64,000 nucleotides of DNA from a virus. Below the pieces are notes generated by a model. The model worked only from the letters and a program-made list of their open reading frames with translations. It was not told the DNA's origin and searched no databases. The DNA lies in the IMG/VR virus record IMGVR_UViG_3300032323_001387, positions 1 through 64,000 of that record. The stretch is one strand, 5' to 3'. This document shows, one piece after another, positions 9,394 to 58,058 of this stretch. The position numbers and the translations under genes were made by a program. How positions within the stretch are numbered: the stretch's first letter is position 1; each line of letters starts with the position of its first letter.

Positions 9394-10278
9394 ATGACAC
9401 TAAAAACTGATATTAATTTCAAACAAGATAAAAACTATGTTCCTGTATTGGATCATGGTTTTGTTGGTCTAGTAGACCATATGGGCAGTGATTCGGCTAT
9501 TGTTCAGGCTGCTCGTGTTAGCTACGGTGCTGGCACAAAACAAGTTCAAGATGACCGTAACTTAATCCGTTACCTAATGCGTCATGAGCATACAACGCCA
9601 TTTGAAATGTGCGAAGTAAAGTTCCACATCAAGCTGCCTATCTTCGTTATGCGACAATTGGTACGACATCGTACTGCTAGCATGAACGAATACAGTGCTC
9701 GTTATAGTGTGCTTACGGATGAGTTTTATATTCCCGAACTAGAACAAATCCAAAAGCAAAGCACATCTAACAAGCAAGGGCGTGAAGAAGCAGAGTGGGG
9801 CTTTGAAGAAAAGCGCGGTGTGCAACATGCCTTCCAACGTAGCTTCTTTAATGCTTATAAGGAATATACTAGTTTGCTAGGCAAAGATGATGATGGGCTT
9901 GCACGTGAGTTGGCTAGAAGTGTGCTTCCAGTAGGCGGATATACAGAATTGTATTGGAAAGCTAACTTGAAGAACTTTCTACACATGGCTCGACTGCGTA
10001 TGGATCCACACGCACAATGGGAGATCCGTGAGTTTGCCGGTGCTATGTATAACTTGGTTAAGCCGTTATTTCCAGAAGCCTGTCAGGCCTTTGAAGACTA
10101 TGCTGTTAATACAGTTAAGTTTAGTGCAGGAGAATTTGACTTATTAAAGAATTTAATAAGTTATGAGAAATGGATTACCTTAGTTGAGAAATACGGCAAA
10201 GACGAAAAAGCCTTGGGCCAGGACGCAGGGCTTGGCATTCGTGAACTTAAAGAGTTCAAAGCTAAGTTAGGTTTGTAA
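9394..10278 (+). CDS. thyX: Flavin-dependent thymidylate synthase
   Basis: AARVSY, HTTPFE, RHRTASMNEYSARY (RHRx7S), RELARSVLP, HAQWEIR. Confidence 0.96.
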   Translation: MTLKTDINFKQDKNYVPVLDHGFVGLVDHMGSDSAIVQAARVSYGAGTKQVQDDRNLIRYLMRHEHTTPFEMCEVKFHIKLPIFVMRQLVRHRTASMNEYSARYSVLTDEFYIPELEQIQKQSTSNKQGREEAEWGFEEKRGVQHAFQRSFFNAYKEYTSLLGKDDDGLARELARSVLPVGGYTELYWKANLKNFLHMARLRMDPHAQWEIREFAGAMYNLVKPLFPEACQAFEDYAVNTVKFSAGEFDLLKNLISYEKWITLVEKYGKDEKALGQDAGLGIRELKEFKAKLGL

Positions 10279-10821
10279 AGGATCGATGCTTATCTCATTT
10301 ACGTGCAGATAAGCAGGTTGTTCTGTTAACCATTTAATATAATTAGCAGCATCCTGGATTGTAATTGTTTTACGTCCAGGATGTTTTGCTTGCATATTAC
10401 TTAAAGTACCAAAGCTAATATAGCTCACTCTTGGTCCTTCATTCCAAACACCATTTAATCCCAGACTATTACAGTAGTCACGCAATGCTTTCTTTTCAGC
10501 ATTGTATAACCAATCTGTGGCTTTCATTACTCTATCAGTTGTGCTACCGATAGCAATGATATATGTCTTCTTCCCAACTGATTTTAATTTCTTATAAGTT
10601 GCCTCAAGCAATAAAGTTTGATTAAATTTCCATAGTGCGCTACATAAAATAATAACATCATAATCAACTGACATATCAGCAAATCGTTGTTGTTGCTCGG
10701 CTTTGGTCAAATCATAACCACAGCTTCTGCTTATAAATGTAACATCATGTTCTGCTAAAGATTCTTTTAATCCTTCGGCTAGACCATAATTACTGTTGCC
10801 CGCTATTAATATCTTCTTCAT
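10267..10821 (-). CDS. Short-chain dehydrogenase/reductase
   Basis: Rossmann start MKKILIAGNSNYGLA (GGAG RBS, start moved to 10821), IGST, YxxxK (YNAEK). Confidence 0.8.
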   Translation of the reverse strand: MKKILIAGNSNYGLAEGLKESLAEHDVTFISRSCGYDLTKAEQQQRFADMSVDYDVIILCSALWKFNQTLLLEATYKKLKSVGKKTYIIAIGSTTDRVMKATDWLYNAEKKALRDYCNSLGLNGVWNEGPRVSYISFGTLSNMQAKHPGRKTITIQDAANYIKWLTEQPAYLHVNEISIDPLQT

Positions 10822-11986
10822 ATGTTTTATCTCCTGGAAATAATGGCAACTTAGTACCTGGTGCTCGTTTAGGTATTTTGCTATCTGCACTGCTTACGCA
10901 ACTTGTTCCGCCACAAGGCATTGGCTTGTCATATAGCTTAAAGCCTGTTTCAATATGTCCCAATGGAACTTCGCTACAACTGTAACTGCGTTTTACAGTG
11001 CCATCTGGTTCACGAATAATAATACTACGGTAGCCACTGCTACACTCCCATTTGTTAAAGTTGTTGAAGTTAAAAGCATTGAAACGTTCAGCTTGATCCA
11101 TAAACCATGGATTACCATCTTTGTCCATAAATTCAATTTGGAAGTGCTGTGGTATACCTTGACCGTAAGTTTGCTTTTGCATTGTTCTAGCATCGTCGAT
11201 TTTAAACGTGGGCTTAGGTCTTTCAACTAATCCTGCTTTGCTGGCTTTTACTTCAGTGAATGCACGTTGTGGCATACCATTGTGTAACTTTTCCAACATA
11301 TCATCAGTGTATCCGTCCACTACACGACTAGCAGTTGGATCACTTTGAGGCTTGAGTGTAACGTTAATACCACGACCATGAAAGTATAATGCCAGATCAT
11401 ATATCTTGTAAAACTGTTCGGGTACCATAACTTGATTGACTGTTATCTGCGTATCATATTCCTGACATAGTACTAACTTGTCAGCAAACTCCTCTACTTT
11501 CTTATCAGTGTCAACGTGTTCCAAATGGCAACTGGCAGTAATACTAGCACGATGGAAATTACGAACTGCGGGTACATACTTTTCTTCAAACCATTTAATA
11601 GGACGACTCATATTACTAGTCATGTGTACGCTGGTATAATTTGTATTACCGGCATCCGTGTTCAAATGGTTAAGAATATCTATGTAAGCAGGATGGAATG
11701 TTGGCTCGCCGCCACTTAGACTGAAGTGGAAACTGTTAAAGCCACGTTCGCGTGCTTGGCGTTTAATCTCATCTACTGTTTTCAACATCAAAGGAGTAGG
11801 GCGGTGATCTTTAGTATCACTACGAGCATAGGGCCAGCAATAGCTACAGCGATAGTTACAGTAACGACCTAATAACCACGACACTGTAAACATGTCTCGA
11901 TATAACATAGTTCGTTGGCCGACTCTTACTAGGTCCTTATAAGGAATCTTAGTAAAGTCATATTCGCTTGTTTTTAAATCACTCAT
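10790..11986 (-). CDS. Radical SAM protein, C-terminal twitch domain
   Basis: CNYRCSYC, SGGEP; C-terminal WECSSG...C...C..C..SAD. Confidence 0.9.
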   Translation of the reverse strand: MSDLKTSEYDFTKIPYKDLVRVGQRTMLYRDMFTVSWLLGRYCNYRCSYCWPYARSDTKDHRPTPLMLKTVDEIKRQARERGFNSFHFSLSGGEPTFHPAYIDILNHLNTDAGNTNYTSVHMTSNMSRPIKWFEEKYVPAVRNFHRASITASCHLEHVDTDKKVEEFADKLVLCQEYDTQITVNQVMVPEQFYKIYDLALYFHGRGINVTLKPQSDPTASRVVDGYTDDMLEKLHNGMPQRAFTEVKASKAGLVERPKPTFKIDDARTMQKQTYGQGIPQHFQIEFMDKDGNPWFMDQAERFNAFNFNNFNKWECSSGYRSIIIREPDGTVKRSYSCSEVPLGHIETGFKLYDKPMPCGGTSCVSSADSKIPKRAPGTKLPLFPGDKTYEEDINSGQQ

Positions 11987-12702
11987 ATAAAATATTTCTT
12001 ATTTTCTTCAATACTTGGTATCACAAAATCTTTTTCATTTAATCCAAATGTTCCACCATTTATCCAATCTAAAATTTTTTCACCTAAAATTTTATTATTT
12101 TCACTGGTTATATGATTATTTCTAATATCAGTAGTATCGCCGGTTAATGTTATACTTAGATCTTTGCCCATAGCTATTGTTTCTTGATAAGCTATTTCAG
12201 ACAAGCTTGTTTGTAAATTTAAAATATTGCAGGCCGATTCAAAACATGGTATAGCTAGTATTTTATTTTTATTGGCTTGTATTACATCCTGTATCATTAG
12301 TCTAGCAATATAAGAATTTTTATCTATATCACAAATGTAATTAAAGTATGACATTGCCGAGGTTAAAGCATCTATAGCAAACTTAGAATTTACATTATTT
12401 GATTTGCTATAATATTCCAAATAAGTTGCCGCATGTTCTGTAGTAGTTATAAACCTATGTATTTTATCATCAAATATGTCGTCTAACATGATTTGAATTC
12501 GATTTTCGTTAGTAACAAACCAAATAATTTTATCAAATTCAAATTGATGTTTTCCTAGCTGTTTAATAGAATAGTATAGATCAGAGCCACCCACTGAAAA
12601 GTTAGTTACACTATGGTATTGCGAAACATATTCCCACCATGACATTGATGGATTTTTCTTATGTTCTTCACCAAAACTGTCTCCAAAAATTCCAATTTTC
12701 AT
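11983..12702 (-). CDS. SGNH/GDSL-like hydrolase or acyltransferase
   Basis: IFGDSF, NFSVGGS, C-terminal NH. Confidence 0.6.
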   Translation of the reverse strand: MKIGIFGDSFGEEHKKNPSMSWWEYVSQYHSVTNFSVGGSDLYYSIKQLGKHQFEFDKIIWFVTNENRIQIMLDDIFDDKIHRFITTTEHAATYLEYYSKSNNVNSKFAIDALTSAMSYFNYICDIDKNSYIARLMIQDVIQANKNKILAIPCFESACNILNLQTSLSEIAYQETIAMGKDLSITLTGDTTDIRNNHITSENNKILGEKILDWINGGTFGLNEKDFVIPSIEENKKYFI

Positions 12703-12929
12703 TTGTCTTGCTCATATACAAACTGAACATCTTTACCAGGGCCCACTTCGCTGGGTAGGCCACCATATTGTTTAACATACCATTCTATAGCAGCCACATA
12801 CCACCCTTGACTATTGTGTCTACTTTCTTTATTAAAAATATAGATGTTATCGTTTGTAGCTGGCATAGTACTAATAACTCTGGCCGCTTCTAATTGTAAT
12901 CTACGTAATGGAAGTTCTTGTATATTCAT
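12699..12929 (-). CDS. Small hypothetical protein in rSAM cluster
   Basis: 76 aa; overlaps both neighbours (translational coupling). Confidence 0.75.
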   Translation of the reverse strand: MNIQELPLRRLQLEAARVISTMPATNDNIYIFNKESRHNSQGWYVAAIEWYVKQYGGLPSEVGPGKDVQFVYEQDK

Positions 12930-13885
12930 TATACGTATTTACTTTTTGTTGCCATTAGATCTGGCATACACCAGCAGGTATTATAAGGGCAGATTACTCC
13001 CGACACTGGTAAATTCATTATGTTTGATTCTTTCCAATTTCCAAAATTTTCATCAGTTCCAATCATACAGCCACTGCCACGTCTTATTGTACCATTGGCA
13101 TCCAATGTTATTTTATCAACACCTATGCCACAACTCCAATCTTTAAACTTGTTTTGCCCATCAACTAAAATCTGTCCCGTTACTTCTTGCAAACGTTGAT
13201 TGTTTATATAAGTGAAACTTGGCTTGTATATGCTCTTTTTAGATTTAGATACTTTTCTATTTTCTTGTATAAAATCCATTTGCTCTTGTGTATAAACTAC
13301 TTTACTGTCAGCAATAGTTTCATATCTATTATCAACTAGCTTTAATTCAAGGCTAGTGAATTCTCTGACATTTTCTATTATATATTTCCTGGCTGCGATT
13401 ACCTGTTCCCAACATGCAGGCCATGCCAACACTAAAATAGTCTTGTATTCATTATCCAGGGCATTGATACTTTCCACAAACTTCTCTACACTTTTTACCT
13501 GTGTGGGATGATAGCTAAACACTGCTGATGTTATCTTACTGCCGATTCTTCTCCAGTAATCCTCTGGCATAATACCGTTGGTGATGAACTTAATATGACT
13601 GTCTGGGCTATTTTTCTTAATAATATCAATTGCGTCTGGAAGTTTTTTCCATATGGCTAACTCACCACCTAGTAATGTATATTCCAGCCTTCTATTTTTT
13701 CCGTAGTGAGCTTGAAGAACCTTAGTTGTATAATCTACACTCTCCAGAGTGGGCCAACCAAAACTACCATCGTGCGTTATACTTGGGCAGTATTCGCAGG
13801 CATAGTTGCAAACATTGGTCATAGTCCAGTCTATAATAACCCAGTCTGGATCAGAATTTATGCGATCAAAGGTCAAAGTTTTCAT
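12929..13885 (-). CDS. Radical SAM protein, C-terminal twitch domain
   Basis: CNYACEYC, GGEL; FKDWSCGIG...C...CPYNTCWC. Start may be 13885 or 13906. Confidence 0.88.
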   Translation of the reverse strand: MKTLTFDRINSDPDWVIIDWTMTNVCNYACEYCPSITHDGSFGWPTLESVDYTTKVLQAHYGKNRRLEYTLLGGELAIWKKLPDAIDIIKKNSPDSHIKFITNGIMPEDYWRRIGSKITSAVFSYHPTQVKSVEKFVESINALDNEYKTILVLAWPACWEQVIAARKYIIENVREFTSLELKLVDNRYETIADSKVVYTQEQMDFIQENRKVSKSKKSIYKPSFTYINNQRLQEVTGQILVDGQNKFKDWSCGIGVDKITLDANGTIRRGSGCMIGTDENFGNWKESNIMNLPVSGVICPYNTCWCMPDLMATKSKYV

Positions 13886-15062
13886 ATAGTTCAGGACATA
13901 CCTCACTGAGGTTTTGGTTGCGTTTTTTATCTAGCACAGATGTAAATTTTTTAAAGTCTTGCCAGTGACTCTGTGGCTTGGTCATCATTAAATTTTTTCT
14001 CATGTTATCAAGGAAAAATTTGTTAGCAGTATTATACTTATTTTCCACATAGTCTAACTGCTCTAGTGCTGCCTGCTTGATACTCTCTGGGGCAATAGCA
14101 ACATGTAGATATTCTGGATGAGTAAGCAGTCTATACTCTATCCATTCTGCAGGACGATTAATCAAAGGCTCTGCCCATTCATAAAAGTCTCGGACATTCA
14201 GCATATTGTATAGTTGATAACTTGAGTTTGGGCTGAATAAAAAGTTTTTATACTCGTTGCGGTATTGACACAGCATATCAATCTTACCTGTGATAGTTTC
14301 CCATGAGCATTGTTCCACGCTACGCATATATTCAAACAGCTTACCTGTGCCATCTATGCTTATATTGATGTTTACAGATTTTGCATTACGCAACCGCAAC
14401 AGATGCTGTTCTGTTAGTAGACTGCCATTTGTTGTTATGCTTAGTCGCACATTTTGCAGTATGCCTGCTTCTGATAGAAGATCAAACACATCTAATAGAT
14501 CATTGTTTATAAACGGTTCACCGCCTGTGACCGTTATCATTCTGAGTTCACCGAGTCTGGGCAATAGTTTTGTGACAAATGACATTAGGTCATTTTTATT
14601 TTTAGTGTAATCAACATAGTCGCTTCTATCAAAGCCATTATCTCTGAGCAGCTGGTCGTCGTTTATCCAACTGTTACTGTACATGCTGTTGCACATCCTG
14701 CATTTAAAATTGCATAGATTGCTAGTGTTTAAGAACAAGTGATAAATTTTATTGCCTGTTATACTCTGTTTAAAATCCTTGGTATCCCAGAGGTCAGCGT
14801 TCCACCATCTCTCATTGGTTTTCCAATTGATGCGTTGACTTACAAGACCCTGTGCTTCTCTGCCATGACAAGTATTGCAACCAGGTAAATTCCATTTATC
14901 GTTTACCATGTCAGAACGTAACTGTGCGAAGTTGCTATTGTCCCAAACATTTTCCTCAGTCATTGAGCCCATAGGTGCAGAACTCATCATACACCTACTT
15001 ACAAAGCCTGCGGGATGAGTTGCTATACTAACGAACGGAATCAAACAAACTTTATCTGCCAT
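13866..15062 (-). CDS. N-terminal-twitch radical SAM protein
   Basis: CLIPF..RC..CNTC, then CNFKCRMC, GGEP, SIDG. Confidence 0.9.
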   Translation of the reverse strand: MADKVCLIPFVSIATHPAGFVSRCMMSSAPMGSMTEENVWDNSNFAQLRSDMVNDKWNLPGCNTCHGREAQGLVSQRINWKTNERWWNADLWDTKDFKQSITGNKIYHLFLNTSNLCNFKCRMCNSMYSNSWINDDQLLRDNGFDRSDYVDYTKNKNDLMSFVTKLLPRLGELRMITVTGGEPFINNDLLDVFDLLSEAGILQNVRLSITTNGSLLTEQHLLRLRNAKSVNINISIDGTGKLFEYMRSVEQCSWETITGKIDMLCQYRNEYKNFLFSPNSSYQLYNMLNVRDFYEWAEPLINRPAEWIEYRLLTHPEYLHVAIAPESIKQAALEQLDYVENKYNTANKFFLDNMRKNLMMTKPQSHWQDFKKFTSVLDKKRNQNLSEVCPELYENFDL

Positions 15063-16224
15063 TGGTTAATTCAGGTACTAATTCTGATAAGTTTTCTTCG
15101 CGACTCTGGTCCAATGAATCTGTATACTTTACAAAATCTCCCCACATATGATTCCAATCCTCTGCGTTCATATAATCAATTAGAGACTGGGCACGTTTTA
15201 TATGCAGATATGGTTGGAGTCTTTCTGCCGCTAACTTTTTTAAATTAGCCGGTAATACCCTAACGTTTAGATAATCCGGATGATCCAAAATGTTAAGATG
15301 TATGTCTTTTACATCCATGGACTCTAAATAGTCAAATAACTTATCTAGCTGCAAGATATTATACATTTGGACAGTACAGTGTACCTGCAGATCTATTTTA
15401 CCCTGTGCGCTCATTTCCACAAATTTAGCTAGATTCTTTTCAACAAGATTCCAGCCTGTGGGATATCTGATATACCTGTTAAGGTCGCCATATGCATCCA
15501 CACTGGCATTTATTTTTATCTTTTTAAAGTGCTGCCAATAGTCCACTAGCTTTTTAGGAAGGTTTGTGCAGTTTGTATTATACTTTAAGGTGATGTTTTT
15601 AGCAAGATCTAATTCGATCAACTTATCAAATAACTTATACTGACTGAGAGCAAGTGTAGGTTCTCCGCCTGTTAGATAAATCTCATCTATAGTGTTAGCG
15701 AGCTTCAACAAATTAACCGCAACTGCATCGTCGTTGGGCCAGTTCATACTACTCAGTCTTTTAACTTCAGTATCAGTTAGCTGCTGTTCAACTAGATGCC
15801 ACTCGTCAACCCATTGGTTACTGGCATATGGATTGCACATACGGCATTTCAAGTTGCACAGGTTACCTAAACGTATATCTATATACTGCACGTTTAATTC
15901 GGGTGTTACCACAGCCTCATAGTCAAACATGTATTTTTCGTTCCAAGCTTGGCGAGCACTGCGAACACCGCTATCCTCTTCTCTAAAGCAGCGTTCACAC
16001 ATCGCGGGTCGTTGATCATTTAACAATTCATGCCTGATGTTCTTCATAGTGTTGCTATGCCAGAAATCCTGCATGTCAGCATCTGTTATCTTATATGGTC
16101 GATTAGTGCCGTTTCTCAAAATAAAATTTTTGCCCGGAGTACTATTACAGCAGACCCTAAGATTACCACTGGCATTAGTGGCAAGGTGCATCCATGGCAG
16201 GATACAAAATGTTTTACTTTGCAT
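15052..16224 (-). CDS. N-terminal-twitch radical SAM protein
   Basis: CILPW..VCC..CERC, CNLKCRMC, GGEP. Confidence 0.92.
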   Translation of the reverse strand: MQSKTFCILPWMHLATNASGNLRVCCNSTPGKNFILRNGTNRPYKITDADMQDFWHSNTMKNIRHELLNDQRPAMCERCFREEDSGVRSARQAWNEKYMFDYEAVVTPELNVQYIDIRLGNLCNLKCRMCNPYASNQWVDEWHLVEQQLTDTEVKRLSSMNWPNDDAVAVNLLKLANTIDEIYLTGGEPTLALSQYKLFDKLIELDLAKNITLKYNTNCTNLPKKLVDYWQHFKKIKINASVDAYGDLNRYIRYPTGWNLVEKNLAKFVEMSAQGKIDLQVHCTVQMYNILQLDKLFDYLESMDVKDIHLNILDHPDYLNVRVLPANLKKLAAERLQPYLHIKRAQSLIDYMNAEDWNHMWGDFVKYTDSLDQSREENLSELVPELTNGR

Positions 16225-16954
16225 TTAATTCTTCTAATAAAAGATCGTAACTTCTACACATGGTCTCTGCATGTTTTTCTCCAGGAGCACCATGTATAAT
16301 CATATGTATACGTGGTTCTGTTCCCAGATGTCTTACACTGTGCTGCCTTCCTATATCAATGGCTCTTGCATCTCCTGCCTTCCAGGGAATCAATCCAGCA
16401 TCTTCCATGACAAATTCAACGCCATCGGGATTGTTAATAGCAACATTATATGCTGCCATTTTACGAACTTCATAATCGGCATGCTGCTTAATATAGCCAC
16501 CGGGCATTAATAGCATAAATCGAACTCTGTCAAAGCGTGTAAAGTTCCAAGTATTTTTTAACCAATTTACAGTAACAGGACAAACATCTGCAATTTCTGT
16601 CCAGGTATATTCTGGTTGTTCTGTGAAGTCATATGCTTTGCTACGCCAATCGTCTGTGGTGTGTTTATTATAGCCATGTAGTACTAGACTATGCCAGCCG
16701 GGATGTTCCTCGCCTCGGTGTTTGACAAACTCATCCATCAAAGCAAGAGCTTCTGCTTCCATTTCTTTCTGTGGCAATGGTAAATCTAATTTAAGACTTG
16801 GACAGTTGCTTTCTTTTTCTATCCAGTTAAAGTAATCTTTCATGACTTGCTTATCTGTTCTCCATGCAGAAAACTTCTCGGGACGAGTATTTAATGAACT
16901 ATAATGAGAAAAATCTTTCCACTGATCAAAAAAATTGTTTACTCGGTTATCCAT
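16214..16954 (-). CDS. Aspartyl/asparaginyl beta-hydroxylase-like 2OG-Fe(II) oxygenase
   Basis: RVRFMLLMPGGYIKQHAD (HxD)...HSV...PRIHMIIHG. Confidence 0.8.
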   Translation of the reverse strand: MDNRVNNFFDQWKDFSHYSSLNTRPEKFSAWRTDKQVMKDYFNWIEKESNCPSLKLDLPLPQKEMEAEALALMDEFVKHRGEEHPGWHSLVLHGYNKHTTDDWRSKAYDFTEQPEYTWTEIADVCPVTVNWLKNTWNFTRFDRVRFMLLMPGGYIKQHADYEVRKMAAYNVAINNPDGVEFVMEDAGLIPWKAGDARAIDIGRQHSVRHLGTEPRIHMIIHGAPGEKHAETMCRSYDLLLEELNAK

Positions 16955-35139: not shown

Positions 35140-35140
35140 A

Positions 35141-38529: not shown

Positions 38530-38537
38530 TATTTATA
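38530..38537 (-). promoter_or_regulatory. T4-type late promoter box TATAAATA
   Basis: Exact octamer in a 15-bp intergenic gap, 5 nt before ATG 38524. Confidence 0.6.
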
Positions 38538-42275: not shown

Positions 42276-42276
42276 T

Positions 42277-50335: not shown

Positions 50336-50997
50336 ATCAATCGTATATCTCTAAGAAACAATTTTATTTTCTTTGCCAACTCTGCGTGTGCTTCCTCGTT
50401 GGGATGATATCCATCACTGCACTTCAAGCCTTTATTTAAACAATAAACTTCGTAGATAGATGTGTCGTAGCCTAGTACAAATTTCTTTGTTGGCAATAAC
50501 TTAACCATATTTTTATATTGGTTTTCAAAAGGTTCTTTATCTATATAACCTTCTAAAAAAGAATTTATAAAAGCATACTGTATGTTTCTAGCCTCCAGAA
50601 AAGATGCTACAAATATCTGTTGCATGTAATATTCCATCAGGCCTTCGTAGTCACTATAGAAATGCTCGTACCAAATATCTTTCATTTTTTTCAGATATTC
50701 TTCATATGGATCATGCCCCAGCAGTATGTTTTCCCATTGTTTCTTTTCTGGAAAATATACTGCTGTGCGTGATATGCCAGTCCAAGAAAATACCACCAAT
50801 GCCCTGGCTGGATGCTCTATGTCTGCAAAGTCATTTAACAAATTAATTATACTAAGCTTGTTAGAACCTCCTGGCACGCCTCTATTAACAACAGGGGTCT
50901 TCATTAAGTCTCCCAATTTAGCAGGCCATGCATCTTTGGACTTTATACCGTCTCCAGCAGTAAAGCTATCTCCGTATGCATAAATTTTATCAATCAT
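50332..50997 (-). CDS. SGNH/GDSL hydrolase-like protein
   Basis: YGDSFTAG, NRGVPGGSN, DGYHPNEEAH. Start moved to MIDK (50997). Confidence 0.78.
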   Translation of the reverse strand: MIDKIYAYGDSFTAGDGIKSKDAWPAKLGDLMKTPVVNRGVPGGSNKLSIINLLNDFADIEHPARALVVFSWTGISRTAVYFPEKKQWENILLGHDPYEEYLKKMKDIWYEHFYSDYEGLMEYYMQQIFVASFLEARNIQYAFINSFLEGYIDKEPFENQYKNMVKLLPTKKFVLGYDTSIYEVYCLNKGLKCSDGYHPNEEAHAELAKKIKLFLRDIRLI

Positions 50998-52435
50998 TTT
51001 CCTTATATACCCCTGTTTCGGCAAAAGTTATTCCTGATTGTTCTACTAGCTTAACTATCTCATAATTTTTATTAAGTTCTATGCTTTCGTACCAATTGGC
51101 TATTTCCGGAAATGTATTAACTATGTTTTTGTTTCTTCTAGCATCATACTGTGAATAGAAACTCTTAAAGTCGTGGAACAATGCAGACTTATCGTGAGTA
51201 GTAGATACGTGACCTGTTTGGACAACTTCTAAATAATCAATTAATCGTTTGATGCTGGCTTTTTCACCTGCTTCTAAATACCGACTATCTTTGTGCAGAT
51301 CATACCATGCTGATAGTTTCGAATGTACTTCATCTTTGAGATCGTTGGGCAACGTAACTGGGCTCATGTATGCAGGCCAGCGCAATATGTTTAGATCCAA
51401 ATAAGGTCTATTGTTTCCATATTTTTGTTTAAGTTCTAACATATCGTCCATGAATTCTGTTATACTAAACAAACATAGATTAGATATAGTCATCATGATG
51501 GTGACATTTCTAAACTTGGCATTTTCAATGAAGTTGACTAAGTTACTGCGCCATACTTTATAGTCCATACCATCACGCAGATACTCGGCATGTAAGCCAA
51601 AGCTTTCGTTGCTGGTAAACAAATCAAACTCTTTAACTGGCAGCGTTTTAGTTACTTCAATTAGTCTTTCCAAAGCTCTGGGGCTTGAACCTAGATTACT
51701 GTTAACCGCAAAGCGCATGTCCAAGTATTCATTCTTTTCGTTTATAATATCAATAAAGCGCCAAAAGTTTTGACTAACTGTACATTCGCCGCCAGTAATA
51801 CGTAGCTCTTGCAAGCTCTTAGATAATTCAGGCCACCATTCAAAGAACGCTTCCACATAGGGATTGTCATCCAAATGGCGCCCATATGCTGTGCTCCACG
51901 CTCCATCAGTCTGGTATGCACCCCCGCCACCGCCTTCAGCAATGAAGTTTTGATATGGGCCATTCTTGGCAATGTCATAGCTCCATGTTGTACTGTAACC
52001 TGCGTTACAATAGCTACAGGCAAAGTTACACTGTCTATCAAAACTGATCTCTAATGTTTTAAGATTAACATCGTCAGCCCAGTTCATGTCCTTGATTTTT
52101 TTAATATCTTCTGCGCTATATATAATACTTTTATTAATACGGTCGCTGATATTATTTCTACCAATGCCTTCCACTTTCCAACAATAGCCGCACTCTGCTG
52201 GCTTTTTGCCTTCCAGCATCATTTTACGCATACGCTTTTTGTGATCAGTGTTGTGCAAGCCGCTGGGGTTATAACTAATTTCGCTGACATCAATTGGATG
52301 CGGCAAAGGTAAGTGACAGCTACCAGTATAGCCAGATCCTAAAAAGATACTGGCGTTGTACCATTTAGCCGCACAGAAGCTGGGACTAATTGAATTTAGA
52401 TTTTCATCTCTCCATTTAATTAGATCATCAGACAT
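50990..52435 (-). CDS. N-terminal-twitch radical SAM protein
   Basis: CAAKW..SCH..CGYC, CNFACSYC, TGGE. Confidence 0.9.
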   Translation of the reverse strand: MSDDLIKWRDENLNSISPSFCAAKWYNASIFLGSGYTGSCHLPLPHPIDVSEISYNPSGLHNTDHKKRMRKMMLEGKKPAECGYCWKVEGIGRNNISDRINKSIIYSAEDIKKIKDMNWADDVNLKTLEISFDRQCNFACSYCNAGYSTTWSYDIAKNGPYQNFIAEGGGGGAYQTDGAWSTAYGRHLDDNPYVEAFFEWWPELSKSLQELRITGGECTVSQNFWRFIDIINEKNEYLDMRFAVNSNLGSSPRALERLIEVTKTLPVKEFDLFTSNESFGLHAEYLRDGMDYKVWRSNLVNFIENAKFRNVTIMMTISNLCLFSITEFMDDMLELKQKYGNNRPYLDLNILRWPAYMSPVTLPNDLKDEVHSKLSAWYDLHKDSRYLEAGEKASIKRLIDYLEVVQTGHVSTTHDKSALFHDFKSFYSQYDARRNKNIVNTFPEIANWYESIELNKNYEIVKLVEQSGITFAETGVYKEND

Positions 52436-54005
52436 CTTTGTTAATTACCTTTTGTTTCATTGCTTTACAAATATTATAAAACTCTGTGTACTCTGGATAT
52501 ACTTCTAAAAAGTTTGTACCATAACGACGATCCAAGTCATTGACAAAGTCATAGAACTTGGCACGATTTAGTGTAAAGTCTTTGTTGCCTTCTACATCAT
52601 TTTTAGAATTATAAGCAATATTCAAACACACACGTTTGAATTTTTCAAGCTCAAACTCTTCAAAGGCATGGTGCATTTTCCAAGTCTTAGTCTGTGTTGT
52701 ATGATCCGCCATATAGTTAATACTTGGCAGCAAATATTCTTGAATAAGATCTTTACTGGCCCACTGTGCATCCAAGAACGTTGGATTACGCAAGTAAGGC
52801 AAATCAATACCATTGATACTAGGATGACTTGTAGTCTTTTTACTTCTGTCTGTATATGACTCTCCAGGGAAAGCAAAGTTAAAGCCTGTGTCCTTTTCCC
52901 ACATGTTAGCGACAACGGGGTTAGGATTATATTTCTTTCTAAGTTCGAGCTGCCATTCAAACAATTTCTGTATGCTGGAAATACTTAGAATGTTAAACGT
53001 AACCATTGTGGTAATTCTAATATTACCCATTTGCATGATTTGTTCGTAACGCTTGCAGAACTTTTCAAAGTCCAGTCCTGGACGCAGATATTCCGCACGT
53101 TCACCCCAACCATCTACGCTGGTAAAGATAGTTAGCTTCTTGATATAGTTGCCACGACTTAGAATTTCTGCACGTTCGATAAACTTGTCCCACAGCTTGT
53201 CAGGTACACCCATATTAGTATTAATACTAAATTCAAGATCGGGGTTTGGATTGTCGATGAACCAGTCCATACTTCTATATGTTTCTTTGCTTAACAGCGG
53301 CTCGCCGCCTGTGATACGGAATACATGTAAGTGTTTGTAAGCTTCAGGCCACCATTTCCAAAATGCATCAATGTAAGGATTGAATTCACTGTTCTTATAA
53401 CTTAGACTGTCTAAGTCAGGTTGCCAGCCCTGTGCCCATACAGTGTGATCTGTATTTTCCAACAACTTAACTGGGCCGTTTTGTTTTAGTTCTTCTACCC
53501 ACTTACTACTATACTCGGGACCGCAGTACACGCATTTGAAGTTACATACGTTACTAAAGTCTACTTCTAAATAACTTGGATAAAAGTCTTTGTTAGGGTC
53601 GCTGGCTTGAATCTCGTCATGCTTTTCCAATGCCCATGGCTCTAAACTCTTATAGAATCTATCACTGGGACTTTTGTTATCTTCAACACGCCAGCAGTAA
53701 TCACATTCCTTTGGACGCTGTCCTTCCAGCATTTCTTTTCTAGCTTTTTTAAGCACACTAGTATTAAACAATGCGCCCGAATTCTTTTGAATTTCTTCTA
53801 AGGGGATTTTATGTGGCACTGGGTGGTGACAACTATGTGTCATTCCTGTGCCTAAGTGCATAGTAACTTGTGTAAACTTAGCAAGGCAAAAACCAGGCCC
53901 AGTGCTATCTAACAGTTCTTTTGTCTTATCAATATTTGGCCCGGTGCGAGCTACTTTATTGTCATAACCGATATCCCAATTGATATCACTGAGTTTCTTT
54001 TTCAT
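52428..54005 (-). CDS. N-terminal-twitch radical SAM protein
   Basis: CLAKF..SCHH..CDYC, CNFKCVYC, TGGEP. Confidence 0.9.
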   Translation of the reverse strand: MKKKLSDINWDIGYDNKVARTGPNIDKTKELLDSTGPGFCLAKFTQVTMHLGTGMTHSCHHPVPHKIPLEEIQKNSGALFNTSVLKKARKEMLEGQRPKECDYCWRVEDNKSPSDRFYKSLEPWALEKHDEIQASDPNKDFYPSYLEVDFSNVCNFKCVYCGPEYSSKWVEELKQNGPVKLLENTDHTVWAQGWQPDLDSLSYKNSEFNPYIDAFWKWWPEAYKHLHVFRITGGEPLLSKETYRSMDWFIDNPNPDLEFSINTNMGVPDKLWDKFIERAEILSRGNYIKKLTIFTSVDGWGERAEYLRPGLDFEKFCKRYEQIMQMGNIRITTMVTFNILSISSIQKLFEWQLELRKKYNPNPVVANMWEKDTGFNFAFPGESYTDRSKKTTSHPSINGIDLPYLRNPTFLDAQWASKDLIQEYLLPSINYMADHTTQTKTWKMHHAFEEFELEKFKRVCLNIAYNSKNDVEGNKDFTLNRAKFYDFVNDLDRRYGTNFLEVYPEYTEFYNICKAMKQKVINKDV

Positions 54006-54014: not shown

Positions 54015-54986
54015 TTAATTTATGCTATTATCTACTTGACTCTCTTTGACTAGAGCGCCTAACCTAGGTGGGTTAATAAAACTTTCTTTGAACATGCGAC
54101 TACCATTGACGTCCAATTCTGCAATCTCAAGATTTAAATTTGTTCTTAGTTCTTGACCAAATTTGTAAATTTCTTTTTTCAACTTGTCGGCGTCATAGTT
54201 CCAGCCTGTGGCATTACATCTGCCAGTGTCGCCCTCGAATTGAGGTTGAACACTTTCTTTCCAGAAATTATCATGCCAATCAAAATCCCTGCAGGCTGTA
54301 AAATCAAAACTATCTTTAGCAAGGTTAGTCAAGTATGCACCAAGTCTGGTGCCAAACATAGCCCATAGTCCATTTTCAACATCCGCTCCAACACTGCTCC
54401 ATACTAGGAAACGTTTGTAATTGCGTTCATGCACTTGTTCTTTTAAACGCCTAGGATCAACAGTTACGCCACCATTGAGCAATAGCTTGACACCTTCTCT
54501 AAAGCCTGCTCTATATGCTTGATATGCGCTGGCATTGTTGTGTACATCGCAGTAGATATTATTCATTTGGAAATAATAAATGTCCCAACAGAAGTCAACT
54601 TTGGCTTTTGGATCTTCTGCATTTTCATGTGTACGCATTTGTTCTACTACATGCTTAGGCCACATCTTAATACCACCATTGCCATAGACTAATCCGTTCA
54701 TGACGTTTTTTCCTGCCCAGCTAACAATGTCGTGCTTGCCTATTTTACTCATATCCAATTCTAGACTAAAGAATTCTTCGCGAACAATATTATCTGCGTC
54801 CACAGTAATAAAACGATCAGTCTCTGCTACTCTTGCTGCTTCTTTATGTGCATTATCGAAACCTTTAACGCCGTGTACTCGTTTTGCCCATGGTGCTTTT
54901 TCTAAGAGGTTTGCATAATTCTTATCTGCATTAGGTTCATCGTAGCTTAAAAATACGATATCAAAATTTGTAATAGGTACTGACAT
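54015..54986 (-). CDS. Putative GT-A glycosyltransferase (family 1)
   Basis: FLSYDEP, GVKGFDNAH, TVDAD, YGNGGIK, RAGFRE. Confidence 0.65.
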   Translation of the reverse strand: MSVPITNFDIVFLSYDEPNADKNYANLLEKAPWAKRVHGVKGFDNAHKEAARVAETDRFITVDADNIVREEFFSLELDMSKIGKHDIVSWAGKNVMNGLVYGNGGIKMWPKHVVEQMRTHENAEDPKAKVDFCWDIYYFQMNNIYCDVHNNASAYQAYRAGFREGVKLLLNGGVTVDPRRLKEQVHERNYKRFLVWSSVGADVENGLWAMFGTRLGAYLTNLAKDSFDFTACRDFDWHDNFWKESVQPQFEGDTGRCNATGWNYDADKLKKEIYKFGQELRTNLNLEIAELDVNGSRMFKESFINPPRLGALVKESQVDNSIN

Positions 54987-55926
54987 TTGCGTCCTCGATA
55001 TGTAAATGGTGATAATTTGAAATTATCTTAACTGGTGTCTTAGATTTTAATTTTAATTCGACTAGTTTAAAATCATCCAATTCTTGAGTATTTAAAGTCA
55101 AAGTATCTAAAATTTGACCAGGATCGTTGCTACTAAAAACATAAAACGTTATTTCTTTATCCAAATTAAAATTTTGAGTTTCACTCATGATACTTTGGAT
55201 TTGCAGTATGTTGCCTATTTGTTTATATACTAGTGTAGGTTTTAAACTCGCAGAAGCAATAGGAACGAAATAAGGTTCCTTATCTATACTGATTTTAAAA
55301 TTATGATTATAATGCAAAAAACCCAGACTGTCAAATTTTATATGTTCATTGGGCAACCATTTGCAGGAAAATATTTGCTCGTGATTGGAAAATAATTCTT
55401 TGATGTTTAGCGTGAGTTTGTCATACAACTTGCTAGGCTCTTCTTTGTCTATACAAAAAATTTCCATCTGATCGGGCATGTTTGCTAATTGAAATTCTGT
55501 TGTACGTTCTTTGGTGTATTCTTGTTTAAAATTATCGTAGATAAAATTAGCATTGATTTTTTTACTAACTAGATCACAATGCAAGTGGATGAAATTATTG
55601 CTATCGTTTTCGCCATATACGTAATCAAATTCCCAACGTCTGTGTTCGCGATGCTTGTATAAGATTCTTGACCCCGACTCATGATCATATCTTATTCTTA
55701 ATTTATGCAAAGGAGATTTGTTATAAAATATTTCCTTAATAAGGTCATTTTCTTCAACTTCCAATGTAGTGCGTCGACTGTCGGTGCTAGGCACATTATA
55801 AGGCGATACGCTTAATACTTGATATGTTAATTTGTCATACTCAACATAAAACTTACTATCCTTAACTTTTTTCTTTTTAAGAATAGTCTTTTGTATGTCA
55901 AATTCATCATCATTGATATTACGCAT
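54961..55926 (-). CDS. Hypothetical protein
   Basis: 321 aa in the operon; no motif recognised. Confidence 0.7.
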   Translation of the reverse strand: MRNINDDEFDIQKTILKKKKVKDSKFYVEYDKLTYQVLSVSPYNVPSTDSRRTTLEVEENDLIKEIFYNKSPLHKLRIRYDHESGSRILYKHREHRRWEFDYVYGENDSNNFIHLHCDLVSKKINANFIYDNFKQEYTKERTTEFQLANMPDQMEIFCIDKEEPSKLYDKLTLNIKELFSNHEQIFSCKWLPNEHIKFDSLGFLHYNHNFKISIDKEPYFVPIASASLKPTLVYKQIGNILQIQSIMSETQNFNLDKEITFYVFSSNDPGQILDTLTLNTQELDDFKLVELKLKSKTPVKIISNYHHLHIEDANVSTYYKF

Positions 55927-56766
55927 TTAAATAAATTTTTTTCTTAGGTTAGTCAATGTTTCGGCGGTTAGCCATGCACTGGTATTATATTTAACTAAAC
56001 CCAATTGAACATAATTTTCAATTTTTATATCGCCCTGATCGTTTACCCAGTATGACAAAAATTCTGTCCATGGCTTTTTCGACCATTGGTCATTGACATA
56101 GCTGTTTTCCCTTAAACTTAAATCAATCAAATTAACAAAGTCAAACTTCGTTATTTTAAGTCCTAATATCTTATGCATCATTGACATTAACCATTCGGGC
56201 CATAGATATTTGGGGAATGGGGGCATTGCATTATTTTCTTTATCTGCAAAAAAATCAATGAATTCATTTTGATTATATTGCGACGCGATCAATACTGCCA
56301 TACCAAATACGTAATCGCAGCCTTTATCTCTGTTAAAATATATTGCATCAATAATTGATCCCTCTCCAAAACTTTTTTGTTCAGTGGATCCTTCTGTGTA
56401 CAATGAGTAATCAAGTAACTCGCCATTAAAACTAGATCTAGTTTTTGGCATAACAATGCTGTTCATACCCCTTAAATTTTCCCATACATCAATATTGAAG
56501 TTAGTTAAAATTTGATCAGGATTAAACGCAATGGTTTTTGTATAAGGACTTGCTAATAATGAGTGAAAATATGTTGCCGACAGGATGTTACTCGGCTCTA
56601 TATAAATTTCTCGATCAATGTATAGCAAATATTTTTTTAAGTTGTCTTCATGTGCAATGATGCTGATAGGCCGTTCTTTGTCAAACAGCCTAATACTCTT
56701 GATCAACAGTTCAACCTGTGTCAAGTTTTTCATTTTACAATCAACTATTAAATAACCTTCAGTCAT
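55927..56766 (-). CDS. GT-A-like protein (family 3), degenerate DxD
   Basis: GYLIV..LIKSIR..SPYTKTIAFNPD; paralogous pattern to 56759-57655. Confidence 0.5.
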   Translation of the reverse strand: MTEGYLIVDCKMKNLTQVELLIKSIRLFDKERPISIIAHEDNLKKYLLYIDREIYIEPSNILSATYFHSLLASPYTKTIAFNPDQILTNFNIDVWENLRGMNSIVMPKTRSSFNGELLDYSLYTEGSTEQKSFGEGSIIDAIYFNRDKGCDYVFGMAVLIASQYNQNEFIDFFADKENNAMPPFPKYLWPEWLMSMMHKILGLKITKFDFVNLIDLSLRENSYVNDQWSKKPWTEFLSYWVNDQGDIKIENYVQLGLVKYNTSAWLTAETLTNLRKKFI

Positions 56767-57655
56767 ATATCATTTGTTTTATTTTGTCATAATGTCTAAG
56801 AATAGCCATCTTATTCATTACGTGAACATTTTCGTTTTTAACTCTACTGGCAATATTTTTCCATAATTCTTTTGGGTCTGGGCAAATTAATAACATGTCA
56901 TTGATTTCTTTGAAATCTGCTATGTCGTCAATCTGTTCACTGAACCGCATAACTTTTCCGGGCAGTTCATGTATTAAGTTGCCTTGTCTATGGCCATTTA
57001 AAATATGCACTGCTATGCTTACTGCATAGTCTGTTCTAAACAACACTCCAGGAAACTTATATAACCATTTGTAGTAGTTGTAATTTTCCTTGACATGTTC
57101 CCATACTCCAAAGAACAGTTTGGCTAATTCGCTGTCGCTTCTCCAGTATACAGCAGTTGACCACCACATGTCAATGCCATCTGGGTGTAATTTTTGTTCC
57201 CAAATACGTGGTTTATAATTACGAACACTTAATGCATGTTTGTACATAGCGACTTCACTGTCGGTATCAAATATAGCATCTAATGTGTCGTTGCCAATCA
57301 AGTAGTCAACGTCTATCATTAACGTTTTATTATAAGGACTCTTGTTAAAAATACTATGCTTATTTTTATTGTTGAATTGCGTAGTAAACTCGTTCCATGG
57401 ACTGTCACGATGTGTTCTTGTATTACGTTCGTGCGTTACATTGTCAATGATAATATGATCAAATGTCTGAGCAGCGAGACTTGGCGTTAGTTCTAATTGT
57501 AATGCGTCAAACGTGGGTTGATCTGTTAACAGAGTTACATGATTATTCGTCATGTGTAGTTTTACACATCTAGCTGCCACTAATGCTAGTTTTTCATAAT
57601 CAATTTTACCGTTGTTGTAGGCAATAAGCAATATACCAGAATCAAATTTACTCAT
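56759..57655 (-). CDS. Putative GT-A glycosyltransferase (family 3, GT8/GT71-like)
   Basis: GILLIA, SPYNKTLMIDVDY (DxD), RTDYAVSIA, HVMNK. Confidence 0.6.
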   Translation of the reverse strand: MSKFDSGILLIAYNNGKIDYEKLALVAARCVKLHMTNNHVTLLTDQPTFDALQLELTPSLAAQTFDHIIIDNVTHERNTRTHRDSPWNEFTTQFNNKNKHSIFNKSPYNKTLMIDVDYLIGNDTLDAIFDTDSEVAMYKHALSVRNYKPRIWEQKLHPDGIDMWWSTAVYWRSDSELAKLFFGVWEHVKENYNYYKWLYKFPGVLFRTDYAVSIAVHILNGHRQGNLIHELPGKVMRFSEQIDDIADFKEINDMLLICPDPKELWKNIASRVKNENVHVMNKMAILRHYDKIKQMIYD

Positions 57656-58013
57656 TTAAACCAACCAACCCTTTTGTGTCACGTTGTTTTTTAAGTTTTT
57701 CATTTTCCACATAGTATTCATTTAATGCTTCTGTGTATGCACTAAAAAGTTTTTCGTGGAATTCTTTGATGTTAGTAACCAGTACTGGATTTTCGTTGTC
57801 GTCTAAGAATATATAACGCTCGACATCTAAGTCAATTAGTTGTTTGACAAAATTAAGTAATTCTAGTTTTGCTGTAAAAAGTGAACTCATGTAACCAATA
57901 GTTAACATAGTGTTCATACGTTGTTTGAGATTTAGCTTTTGGTTGTTCAGTGTTAACCTATAGTTACTGAACTCCAAAGCCGCTTTGAGTTTTTCATCCA
58001 TCCAGAGCTCCAT
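57648..58013 (-). CDS. Hypothetical protein
   Basis: 121 aa; first gene after the TATAAATA box. Confidence 0.75.
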   Translation of the reverse strand: MELWMDEKLKAALEFSNYRLTLNNQKLNLKQRMNTMLTIGYMSSLFTAKLELLNFVKQLIDLDVERYIFLDDNENPVLVTNIKEFHEKLFSAYTEALNEYYVENEKLKKQRDTKGLVGLNE

Positions 58014-58030
58014 TATGTGCTATTTTAATT

Positions 58031-58058
58031 TATTTATATCACAAAACAGCAATTTGTG
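58031..58058 (-). promoter_or_regulatory. Late box TATAAATA with upstream CACAAATTG motif, heading the enzyme cluster
   Basis: Minus strand reads CACAAATTGctgttttgtgaTATAAATA. Confidence 0.6.

Follow-up and report, generated by a model that had tools for sequence, protein, structure and literature searches.

Organization of the gene cluster

We analysed the first 64 kb (the window) of the 172,208-bp virus record IMGVR_UViG_3300032323_001387 in IMG/VR, which carries on its minus strand a cluster of 51 co-oriented open reading frames (ORFs) rich in radical S-adenosylmethionine (rSAM) enzymes and putative sugar-tailoring enzymes, lying directly behind genes for fibre-like proteins (Table 1). CheckV rates the record as 48% complete, and the whole phage genome is therefore about 350 kb in size. 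The first 10.3 kb of the window hold plus-strand genes encoding, by Pfam, a NAPRTase, AAA ATPases, a DUF2201/VWA protein, an rSAM protein and ThyX; from position 10267 to the window end, genes lie on the minus strand only.

The cluster itself (10267-58013, 47,747 bp) is tightly packed: 43 of its 50 junctions overlap or abut, the widest gap is 24 nt, and both apparent gaps are filled by small ORFs of 45 and ~76 aa, neither of which is Cys-rich. A preliminary description of the locus, made from the sequence alone, had reported a single run of overlapping co-oriented genes in which no membrane flippase or polymerase was visible, and both statements held. A hydrophobicity check of all products found no transmembrane-grade stretch in any cluster protein, i.e. 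all 51 products are predicted to be soluble. An Rfam search of the window returned no RNA family, and a PHROGs search gave no name to any of the unannotated cluster proteins.

Table 1. Positions of the cluster genes, promoter-like boxes and upstream virion genes in the window.
Feature	Position	Strand	Evidence
g10267, last cluster gene; Rossmann/SDR-like by motif only	10267-10890	-	homologues in 24 viral and 3 bacterial loci
g10790, class B rSAM, highly conserved	10790-11986	-	70-74% identity in many phage contigs, 60-68% in Bdellovibrionota
g11983, SGNH-like (motif level)	11983-12702	-	block I/V motifs
~76-aa ORF in apparent gap	12699-12929	-	ORF call
g12929, class B rSAM	12929-13906	-	Pfam, BLASTP class
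g13866, N_Twi_rSAM	13866-15062	-	Pfam, family A alignment
g15052, N_Twi_rSAM, modelled	15052-16224	-	NF033640 384 bits; pLDDT 90
AspH-like 2-oxoglutarate oxygenase (16214-16954) and g16939, 466-aa protein (16939-18339)	16214-18339	-	PF05118 (Asp_Arg_Hydrox)
g18343, N_Twi_rSAM	18343-19653	-	Pfam, family A alignment
Split class B rSAM: core g19975 (19975-20676), C-terminal-domain gene g19640 (19640-19978)	19640-20676	-	Pfam, BLASTP
g20669, tandem double N_Twi_rSAM, 849 aa	20669-23218	-	Pfam, BLASTP; two CxxxCxxC
g23211, N_Twi_rSAM	23211-24497	-	NF033640 273 bits
g24490, N_Twi_rSAM, near-universal orthogroup	24490-25977	-	up to 77% identity in other phages
g25967, N_Twi_rSAM	25967-27235	-	Pfam, family A alignment, tree
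Two paralogous SGNH-like genes (27228-28172, 28165-29055)	27228-29055	-	29% mutual identity; GCS/GDS block I
g29042, 117-aa protein	29042-29395	-	ORF call
Split class C rSAM: core g29727 (29727-30362), SPASM-only gene g29404 (29404-29730)	29404-30362	-	Pfam, BLASTP
g30355, N_Twi_rSAM	30355-31692	-	Pfam, family A alignment
g31685, nitroreductase-family flavoprotein	31685-32437	-	PF00881
g32434, class C rSAM, C-terminal SPASM	32434-33606	-	up to 67% identity in other phages
g33606, core family, methyltransferase-like by motif only	33606-34463	-	homologues in 41 of 80 viral loci
g34450, family E	34450-35181	-	BLASTP paralogy, alignment
g35141, family E, modelled	35141-36172	-	pLDDT 82.7; VIA Z 10.6-8.3 to GT-A transferases including PBCV-1 A64R
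g36147, family E	36147-36893	-	BLASTP paralogy, alignment
g36918, NodU/CmcH/TobZ-type carbamoyltransferase	36918-38390	-	Carbam_trans_C E 4e-54, Carbam_trans_N E 3e-36
45-aa acidic ORF	38387-38524	-	stop overlaps carbamoyltransferase ATG
TATAAATA box	38530-38537	-	intergenic, co-oriented, 5 nt before ATG of 45-aa ORF
g38540, transketolase-type pyrimidine-binding half of split TPP enzyme	38540-39082	-	PF02779 (Transket_pyr) E 3e-9
g39084, SGNH-like (motif level)	39084-39938	-	block I/V motifs
g39935, 139-aa protein	39935-40354	-	no family match
g40351, NDP-sugar epimerase/dehydratase-type SDR	40351-41286	-	PF01370 E 8e-35; GDP_Man_Dehyd; RmlD_sub_bind
g41283, NDP-sugar epimerase/dehydratase-type SDR	41283-42317	-	PF01370 E 6e-46
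g42277, NDP-sugar epimerase/dehydratase-type SDR	42277-43263	-	PF01370 E 3e-35
g43248, family G	43248-44693	-	paralogy
g44671, family G	44671-46080	-	paralogy; weak Atlas lead
g46065, TPP-binding (E1 alpha-like) half of split TPP enzyme	46065-46694	-	E1_dh, DXP_synthase_N, TPP_enzyme_C
g46704, RmlC-like dTDP-4-dehydrorhamnose 3,5-epimerase	46704-47249	-	PF00908 (dTDP_sugar_isom) E 7e-32
g47246, family G, possibly GT10-like	47246-48676	-	paralogy; weak Atlas lead 0.78
g48669, SGNH-like (motif level, weakest of seven)	48669-49451	-	block motifs
g49448, SGNH-like (motif level)	49448-50335	-	GCS block I, DGFH block V; weak DUF6071 match
g50332, GDSL/SGNH protein	50332-51024	-	Lipase_GDSL 27.5 bits, DUF6071 34.6 bits
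g50990, N_Twi_rSAM	50990-52435	-	NF033640 283 bits, cut-off 170
g52428, N_Twi_rSAM	52428-54005	-	Pfam Radical_SAM; family A alignment; 34% identity to RsoM2USA ORF349
g54015, family E	54015-54986	-	44% identity to g35141; 45% to RsoM2USA ORF350
g54961, 321-aa protein	54961-55926	-	contains perfect TTGACA-17-TATAAT at 55334-55306
g55927, 279 aa, possibly degenerate g56759 paralogue	55927-56766	-	hhalign E 0.009, probability 4.5%
g56759, GT8-like (glycogenin-like) candidate, DxD	56759-57655	-	profile matches only glycogenin-1/2, E 0.003
g57648, 121-aa conserved first module gene	57648-58013	-	32% identity to RsoM2USA ORF354, collinear
TATAAATA box	58031-58038	-	intergenic, co-oriented, 18 nt before g57648
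g58065, Asn/Ser/Thr-rich repeat protein, 413 aa	58065-59306	-	translation
Fibre-type protein with (Gly-Tyr)n tract (59684-59812)	59315-60511	-	translation
Fibre-like 320-aa protein	60511-61473	-	N-terminus phrog_15511; C-terminus phrog_6427, phrog_22593, phrog_19602 (tail fibre)
3' part of gene for 2851-aa virion structural protein, extending to 70671	62116-64000	-	phrog_10938, E 5e-46

Three classes of radical SAM enzymes

Fifteen cluster genes combine a Pfam Radical_SAM match with an intact CxxxCxxC motif and contain 16 such domains, two of them in g20669; a sixteenth rSAM gene of the window lies outside the cluster on the plus strand (8650-9318), and the preliminary description had counted the same numbers of genes. 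By BLASTP the cluster enzymes fall into three classes. Class A (family A) is a single paralogue family of ten genes and 11 domains that corresponds to NCBIfam NF033640 (N_Twi_rSAM); three of the genes were scored against this model, which they matched over positions 1-398, i.e. full length, above the cut-off of 170 bits (Table 1), and the other seven were assigned by BLASTP paralogy and alignment. Class B comprises g10790, g12929 and the split pair g19975 and g19640, and class C comprises g32434 and the split pair g29727 and g29404. In classes B and C the rSAM motif starts 15-45 residues from the N-terminus.

In all 11 class A domains and in 14 outside homologues, four invariant cysteines (C7, C25, C76 and C79) lie ahead of the three cysteines of the rSAM motif (C123, C127 and C130), and Pfam placed SPASM at residues 7-79 and Radical_SAM at 119-270. 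This arrangement puts the predicted auxiliary Fe-S domain of class A on the N-terminal side of the core, which is the reverse of the canonical SPASM/twitch order seen in anSME and BtrN, where the auxiliary domain is C-terminal; class C, in contrast, has the canonical order of core followed by SPASM. NF033640 carries the curated NCBIfam name 'twitch domain-containing radical SAM protein' with no known reaction, and our literature search found no paper on N_Twi_rSAM/NF033640 or on rSAM arrays in phages. When six rSAMs covering all three classes were compared with the NCBIfam equivalogs, the best scores were 20-45 bits against cut-offs of 180-650, and single-sequence PDB searches with classes B and C returned generic rSAM matches only (E >0.005).

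Outside the cluster, near ThyX, the plus-strand rSAM of 222 aa is preceded by a 114-aa ORF (8309-8653) with a Cys motif of the type G-x-x-x-P-C-C. The two genes may represent a split auxiliary domain and core; neither matches the family A profile.

The predicted model of g15052 is confident, and solved structures align with it only over the core (approximately residues 107-358), none covering residues 1-105. Matches to the core were led by anSME (Z 11.8), CteB (11.6), BlsE (11.2) and SkfB (11.0), with viperin within the range 10.9-11.8, and DesII (9.0) and AprD4 (8.3) scored lower. BtrN and HygY, which the preliminary description had cited, are absent from the structural match lists of g15052, and the resemblance to them is a matter of general knowledge. 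Structural relatives over the full length of the model all came from uncultured tailed phages. In BFVD, 'MoaA/nifB/pqqE family' proteins of the cultured Vibrio phages KVP40 and phi-pp2 appeared as distant full-length relatives (TM 0.58-0.60).

These matches bear on the possibility that the rSAMs modify protein side chains or backbone directly, e.g. in the fibres, in the style of anSME and of the enzymes that act on ribosomally synthesised peptides with post-translational modifications (RiPPs). Such enzymes would introduce cross-links, epimerisation or C-beta oxidation, the AspH-like protein would act on Asp/Asn, and the sugar genes would form a separate or later layer. Several top neighbours of the N_Twi core (anSME, CteB and SkfB) are, together with SuiB, maturases of this kind with auxiliary Fe-S clusters. 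The AspH family hydroxylates protein residues (textbook), and AspH-like genes occur in 20 viral and 7 bacterial loci among those compared below. A nitroreductase-fold protein is present, such folds being dehydrogenases in some RiPP pathways (textbook), and an odd (Gly-Tyr)n tract is encoded two genes upstream. However, a search for PqqD or another RiPP recognition element (RRE; Pfam, E <=0.01) gave no match in any cluster protein, the N-termini being taken up by the rSAM motif in classes B and C and by the Fe-S domain in class A, although RiPP systems without an RRE do exist. We also found no conserved precursor-like small gene or conserved acceptor, and the class A domain order is permuted relative to the maturases. 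Moreover, the arrays are consistently accompanied by sugar enzymes, and BlsE, viperin and DesII score nearly as high as the peptide-acting enzymes. We therefore consider direct protein modification decidedly unlikely.

Sugar, decoration and redox enzymes

Pfam matches supported most of the enzyme inventory of the preliminary description, i.e. three nucleoside diphosphate (NDP)-sugar short-chain dehydrogenases/reductases (SDRs), RmlC, a split thiamine diphosphate (TPP) enzyme, a carbamoyltransferase, an AspH-like oxygenase and a nitroreductase. Two further labels, a methyltransferase (g33606) and an SDR (g10267), belong to genes that are present but whose identity is given by motifs only. The family of g33606 has more than 1800 homologues, almost all without a Pfam domain, and a PDB profile search with it gave no match; the true start of g10267 is probably the ATG at codon 24. 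The carbamoyltransferase g36918 carries both expected domains above cut-off (Carbam_trans_N 126 bits, Carbam_trans_C 183 bits), and g16939 and the AspH-like gene occur elsewhere fused as one protein. The helper genes flavodoxin and IscA were not found in the 172 kb of the record (~48% of the genome).

The seven proteins that had been called SGNH-like share an N-terminal G-[DC]-S block in which G and S are invariant in all seven, and a C-terminal His is aligned in six. Of the seven, g50332 alone passed Pfam, and the other six are SGNH-like at motif level only; a PDB profile search with the seven found nothing.

Candidate glycosyltransferases

The preliminary description had counted about nine glycosyltransferase (GT)-like genes, and the evidence for these proved uneven. 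It is strongest for the four members of family E (g54015, g36147, g35141 and g34450), for which the model of g35141 predicts a GT-A fold. The VIA Z scores were 10.6 for B4GALNT1, 9.8 for 6p61, a Leptospira glycosyltransferase, 9.6 for both WrtF and STIV A197, 9.2 for SpsA and 8.3 for PBCV-1 A64R (Foldseek probability 1.0); nucleotidyltransferases of the same fold followed close behind (Z 8-9). An alignment of 16 family E sequences contains a DxD motif within a V-D-A-D-N block, with D88 nearly invariant and D90 invariant. Atlas neighbours of the family were viral, one of them auto-named GT2-like, and a PDB profile search with the family was uninformative at the sequence level.

The profile of the g56759 family matched glycogenin (GT8) in 19 of 19 PDB hits, the best of which was weak (E 0.003; profile positions 16-119), and D115 and D117 are invariant in the family, again forming a DxD motif. 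If g55927, encoded next to it, is a paralogue at all, it is a degenerate one, as judged from a weak hhalign match (Table 1). For the three genes of family G we obtained a weak Atlas lead to GT10 (0.77-0.78) and no GT10 match in a PDB profile search. Two suspected kinships were rejected: family E is unrelated by sequence to the GT8-like family, and a link between g33606 and family E that arose from single-linkage clustering was not upheld by hhalign. Of the nine assignments, family E stood on its GT-A fold and DxD motif, g56759 remained a candidate through its weak glycogenin matches, and those of family G and g55927 were weak.

Promoters and expression timing

The preliminary description had noted TATAAATA boxes at 58031 and 38530, and we found both to be present, intergenic and co-oriented with the cluster. 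The motif occurs three times in the window, compared with ten times expected by chance, and 12 times in the 172-kb record; nine of these 12 copies fall in non-coding DNA, which makes up 4% of the record, and each of the nine stands 4-30 nt ahead of a gene or ORF in the same orientation. The motif fits a T4-type late promoter and, by its placement, acts like a genuine promoter element of this phage. The 45-aa ORF that starts 5 nt past the box at 38530 lacks a Shine-Dalgarno sequence, and its product is acidic and probably helical.

A second motif, perfect TTGACA-17-TATAAT of sigma-70 type, occurs 22 times in the record compared with ~0.3 expected. The plus-strand block between 2 and 9.4 kb has seven copies, six perfect and one with a single mismatch; perfect copies precede several of the genes there, and ThyX has its own at 9359-9387 (+). 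ThyX and the last cluster gene converge, overlapping by 12 nt at 10267-10278 with no terminator-like site between them.

The adjoining ThyX gene raises the possibility that the cluster hypermodifies the DNA of the phage by attaching a tailored sugar to it, on the pattern of phages with glucosyl- or arabinosyl-hydroxymethylcytosine and of viruses with glycan-hypermodified 5-hydroxymethylcytosine. Virus-encoded glycosyltransferases are reported to put varied glycans on DNA (Pyle et al., bioRxiv 10.1101/2023.12.21.572611). However, ThyX lies on the opposite strand behind its own sigma-70-type promoter, the 172 kb of the record (~48% of the genome) contain no ThyA-type hydroxymethylase, TET/JBP oxygenase or TGT/DpdA, and late-type promoters and a position after the fibre genes are ill-suited to a role coupled to replication. 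DNA hypermodification is thus extremely unlikely in our view.

Upstream virion genes

The claim that the cluster directly follows fibre genes was confirmed by PHROGs matches (phrog_10938 and phrog_19602) and by the 2851-aa ORF at 62116-70671. The two fibre-type proteins encoded immediately upstream (59315-60511 and 58065-59306) are Asn/Ser/Thr-rich, and the phrog families of the next protein (60511-61473) also occur in ORFs upstream of the module in two other viral loci (L044 and L071). In eight other viral loci, eight of the ten large co-oriented upstream ORFs encode tail sheath, fibre, baseplate or other virion proteins; since these ORFs were picked by size (>=450 aa), which favours structural proteins, this proportion is an upper estimate. 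Where the module starts with a g57648-like gene and a GT8-like gene (five loci), one or two variable proteins of 300-350 aa are encoded immediately upstream, and a fibre-like gene lies farther up in three of the five.

Glycogenin, which g56759 weakly resembles, is a GT8 enzyme that glucosylates tyrosine, and the (Gly-Tyr)n tract lies upstream. Tyr O-glycosylation is therefore no more than a lead.

Distribution and age of the arrays in phages

One N_Twi member alone has more than 4000 homologous protein clusters. Our scan of viral contigs identified at least 593 stretches, of which 80 loci were kept for comparison, and these carry up to nine N_Twi copies in 17 kb. In these 80 loci N_Twi genes were constantly accompanied by class C (in 51-52 loci), class B (in 40-49), the g33606 family (in 41) and family E (in ~40). 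Hundreds of phage contigs, in many cases at a site that follows tail genes, share a core made up of the three rSAM classes, family E and a 230-aa family. Less constant companions were a QueC/AsnB-like PP-loop protein (25 viral and 3 bacterial loci), the carbamoyltransferase, which stands next to these rSAM families in 15 viral and 7 bacterial loci, a UDP-Glc/GDP-Man dehydrogenase (14 viral loci) and a separate nitroreductase-family protein, not similar in sequence to g31685, that recurs in 7 viral and 3 bacterial loci, as well as family G, the g10267 family and AspH with its fusion partner g16939. Homologues of g57648 were found in 5-7 viral loci, depending on the cut-off.

We built a tree of 439 N_Twi domains to examine the history of the paralogues. 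Seven of the 11 window domains fell in clades of their own with 11-80 leaves from many loci, the largest being that of g24490 (80 leaves from 77 loci, support 0.99), and in loci with at least three N_Twi copies 81% of the copies belonged to different clades. These separate, conserved clades indicate that the paralogues are old and that each is conserved separately, as a multistep pathway predicts, rather than having arisen by recent duplication.

A marine phage lineage that is abundant and occurs in many samples, represented by a 244.6-kb ENA contig (L081) and 23 similar contigs, has an array in which one product is a 605-aa fusion of an rSAM and a class I methyltransferase.

Related arrays in Bdellovibrionota

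In a search of one genome per prokaryote species, the cellular matches were overwhelmingly from Bdellovibrionota (Bdellovibrionales, Bacteriovoracaceae, Halobacteriovorax and Oligoflexia). The same rSAM classes co-occur there, with identities of 60-68% to g10790 and ~60% to g24490. In one example (L136; OZ220490.1, a 1.89-Mb Bdellovibrionales chromosome), positions 4941-16530 hold eight tandem rSAM genes on one strand, at least seven of them N_Twi_rSAM, followed by an AsnB-type amidotransferase. Neighbours in the bacterial arrays include AsnB-type amidotransferase, two DegT sugar aminotransferases, GT2, GT1/28, a methyltransferase and GDSL-like proteins, and the flanks encode Mfd, NuoL, PhoH, EF-G and dCTP deaminase. 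The GT2, DegT and AsnB neighbours provide independent support for a carbohydrate context, which by gene content is well supported.

This genomic setting suggests another possibility, i.e. that the product is a free, lipid-linked or host-envelope glycan: in the phage, a modified lipopolysaccharide or capsule unit exported by the host or a soluble glycan released at lysis, and in Bdellovibrionota a cell-surface polysaccharide. The company of GT2, GT1/28, DegT and AsnB between housekeeping genes is that of O-antigen and capsule loci, and pathways of the ABC-transporter type complete their polymer in the cytoplasm (textbook), which would match an all-soluble enzyme set. On the other hand, none of the 51 cluster genes encodes an initiating phosphoglycosyltransferase, flippase, polymerase, transporter or membrane protein, and the cluster lies behind late-type promoters in a giant phage of lytic type, with related phage arrays consistently beside tail genes. 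An envelope glycan is accordingly unlikely to be the product.

Comparison with known systems

A cultured phage with a related module is Ralstonia phage RsoM2USA (343.8 kb), whose ORF354-347 follow the gene order of the cluster: a g57648-like gene, a GT8-like gene (ORF353, matching g56759), family E (ORF350, matching g54015), one N_Twi_rSAM (ORF349, matching g52428), a second family E gene (ORF348) and a g33606-like gene. This collinear mini-module lies directly behind ORF361, ORF359 and ORF356, whose products were found by mass spectrometry to be virion proteins (PMC8504454). The module differs from the cluster in having one rSAM gene instead of 15 and no RmlC, TPP enzyme or carbamoyltransferase; its genes are all annotated as hypothetical, and the sole SDR-type similarity in RsoM2USA is outside the module. 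Relative to the NF033640 family, to which ten cluster genes with 11 domains belong, what sets the cluster apart is their assembly into an array of ten that includes a tandem double enzyme.

Virus-encoded glycosylation of virions has precedents. The chlorovirus PBCV-1 (A064R/A64R) and the fibril clusters of mimivirus are cytoplasmic, host-independent pathways that make rare sugars and attach them to proteins of the capsid or fibrils. Family E has A64R among its structural neighbours, a relation at fold level only; these are viruses of eukaryotes with no known rSAM arrays. Among phages, mycobacteriophage virions are glycosylated by phage-encoded glycosyltransferases (Freeman et al. 2023, PMC10527164, as cited in PMC12619734). 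The mycobacteriophage systems reportedly use soluble glycosyltransferases encoded near structural genes to decorate virion proteins, but with few glycosyltransferase genes and no known rSAM, compared with 51 genes and 16 rSAM domains in the present cluster, which is known from its genes alone.

The cluster enzymes can also be compared with those of glycoside pathways, in which BtrN, HygY, DesII, AprD4 and BlsE carry out radical oxidation, epimerisation, deamination or deoxygenation of sugars. These enzymes share the rSAM core, and several have an auxiliary cluster, but their auxiliary domain follows the core, whereas that of class A precedes it. The product could alternatively be a diffusible small molecule of aminoglycoside, pseudo-oligosaccharide or nucleoside type, which phages and predatory bacteria would direct against the host, prey or competitors. 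Twitch-type rSAMs, a TobZ-like carbamoyltransferase, glycosyltransferases, SDRs and the bacterial sugar aminotransferases are together reminiscent of aminoglycoside and nucleoside antibiotic clusters, all of the enzymes are soluble, and the cellular family is concentrated in the predatory Bdellovibrionota. We nevertheless regard a small molecule as very unlikely: we saw neither an exporter nor a resistance gene nor any synthase for a cyclitol or scaffold, this reading offers no explanation for the late-type promoters or for the association with tail genes, and nine GT-like genes suggest a longer glycan.

A proposed glycan-editing pathway

The reading that we prefer, which we hold at close to but somewhat short of an even chance, is that a soluble, membrane-independent cytoplasmic pathway makes unusual activated sugars, joins them into a glycan, and then decorates this glycan and edits it by radical chemistry, the most likely acceptor being one or more of the fibre-associated virion proteins encoded just upstream; we infer every reaction, the order of the steps and the acceptor. 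In the first step, the three NDP-sugar SDRs, RmlC, g10267 and the two-gene TPP enzyme would act on sugar nucleotides to diversify the precursors. Addition of a two-carbon branch, the role proposed for AviB1/AviB2, is a possible function of the TPP enzyme. In the second, the GT8-like g56759, the four family E proteins and the three family G proteins would attach the sugars. In the third, the carbamoyltransferase would introduce O-carbamoyl groups, the seven SGNH-like proteins would acylate or de-acylate the glycan, and the g33606 family may methylate it. In the fourth, the 16 rSAM domains, the AspH-like oxygenase and the nitroreductase-type flavoprotein would edit the glycan at unactivated sugar C-H positions, the likely outcomes of the rSAM reactions being oxidation, epimerisation, deoxygenation or C-C bond formation, with one step for each ancient paralogue.

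A link of the cluster to the virion is suggested by the TATAAATA box 18 nt ahead of it and by its place directly behind the fibre-like genes. The preliminary description had gone further and proposed a coat of modified glycan on the virion proteins; gene content, solubility, the carbohydrate context and tail-gene synteny are in favour of this, whereas the identity of the acceptor was not borne out.

Several results weigh against the proposed pathway. On the enzyme side, peptide-acting and sugar- or nucleotide-acting enzymes match the N_Twi core at similar Z, so the modelled fold does not tell one kind of substrate from the other. The glycosyltransferase readings of family G and g55927 are weak, and no sugar-activating nucleotidyltransferase was found in the cluster. 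On the question of timing, the perfect TTGACA-17-TATAAT at 55334-55306 lies on the coding strand, in frame inside g54961, and might drive most of the cluster from within as a promoter of early type. This makes late-only expression uncertain, and the late expression claimed initially is favoured by the TATAAATA boxes but opposed by this sigma-70-type promoter.

The remaining adverse points concern the acceptor. Synteny is what points to virion proteins, and since the space beside tail-fibre genes is also a usual site of accessory genes, position alone says little. Two specific candidates were rejected: g58065 has the densest NxS/T in the record, but its composition explains this (z 0.9), and the (Gly-Tyr)n tract was set aside as a general acceptor, since neither RsoM2USA nor any of 160 other loci has it. 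The comparison of synteny was divided: the phage arrays often follow virion-type genes, as described above, whereas those of Bdellovibrionota have housekeeping genes on both sides and no structural genes of phages in the vicinity. Homologous arrays unlinked to structural genes are the refuting result that had been named beforehand; they show that the pathway itself is not virion-specific, and its product need not be tied to a virion.

Biological significance

A broader and more doubtful proposal, which we consider possible, is that arrays of N-terminal-twitch rSAMs form a new kind of glycan-editing assembly line in which, during glycosyl transfer or afterwards, about a dozen separately conserved enzymes rewrite stereocentres, remove hydroxyls or forge C-C bonds on a protein-bound glycan. 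This would give a coat that withstands enzymes and is difficult to recognise, on the fibres of aquatic giant phages and on the surface of predatory Bdellovibrionota, with the module shared by gene transfer.

If the glycan-editing pathway is real, it would be by far the largest phage sugar-tailoring pathway known, occupying ~14% of the ~350-kb genome, and about one third of its genes would encode radical enzymes of orphan families not known to have been assayed. The cluster gives a context, and through RsoM2USA a cultured entry point, for three orphan rSAM families, one of which is domain-permuted and without a solved structure. It also raises the questions of what giant aquatic phages show on their fibres, and of why phages and bacterial predators share this chemistry.

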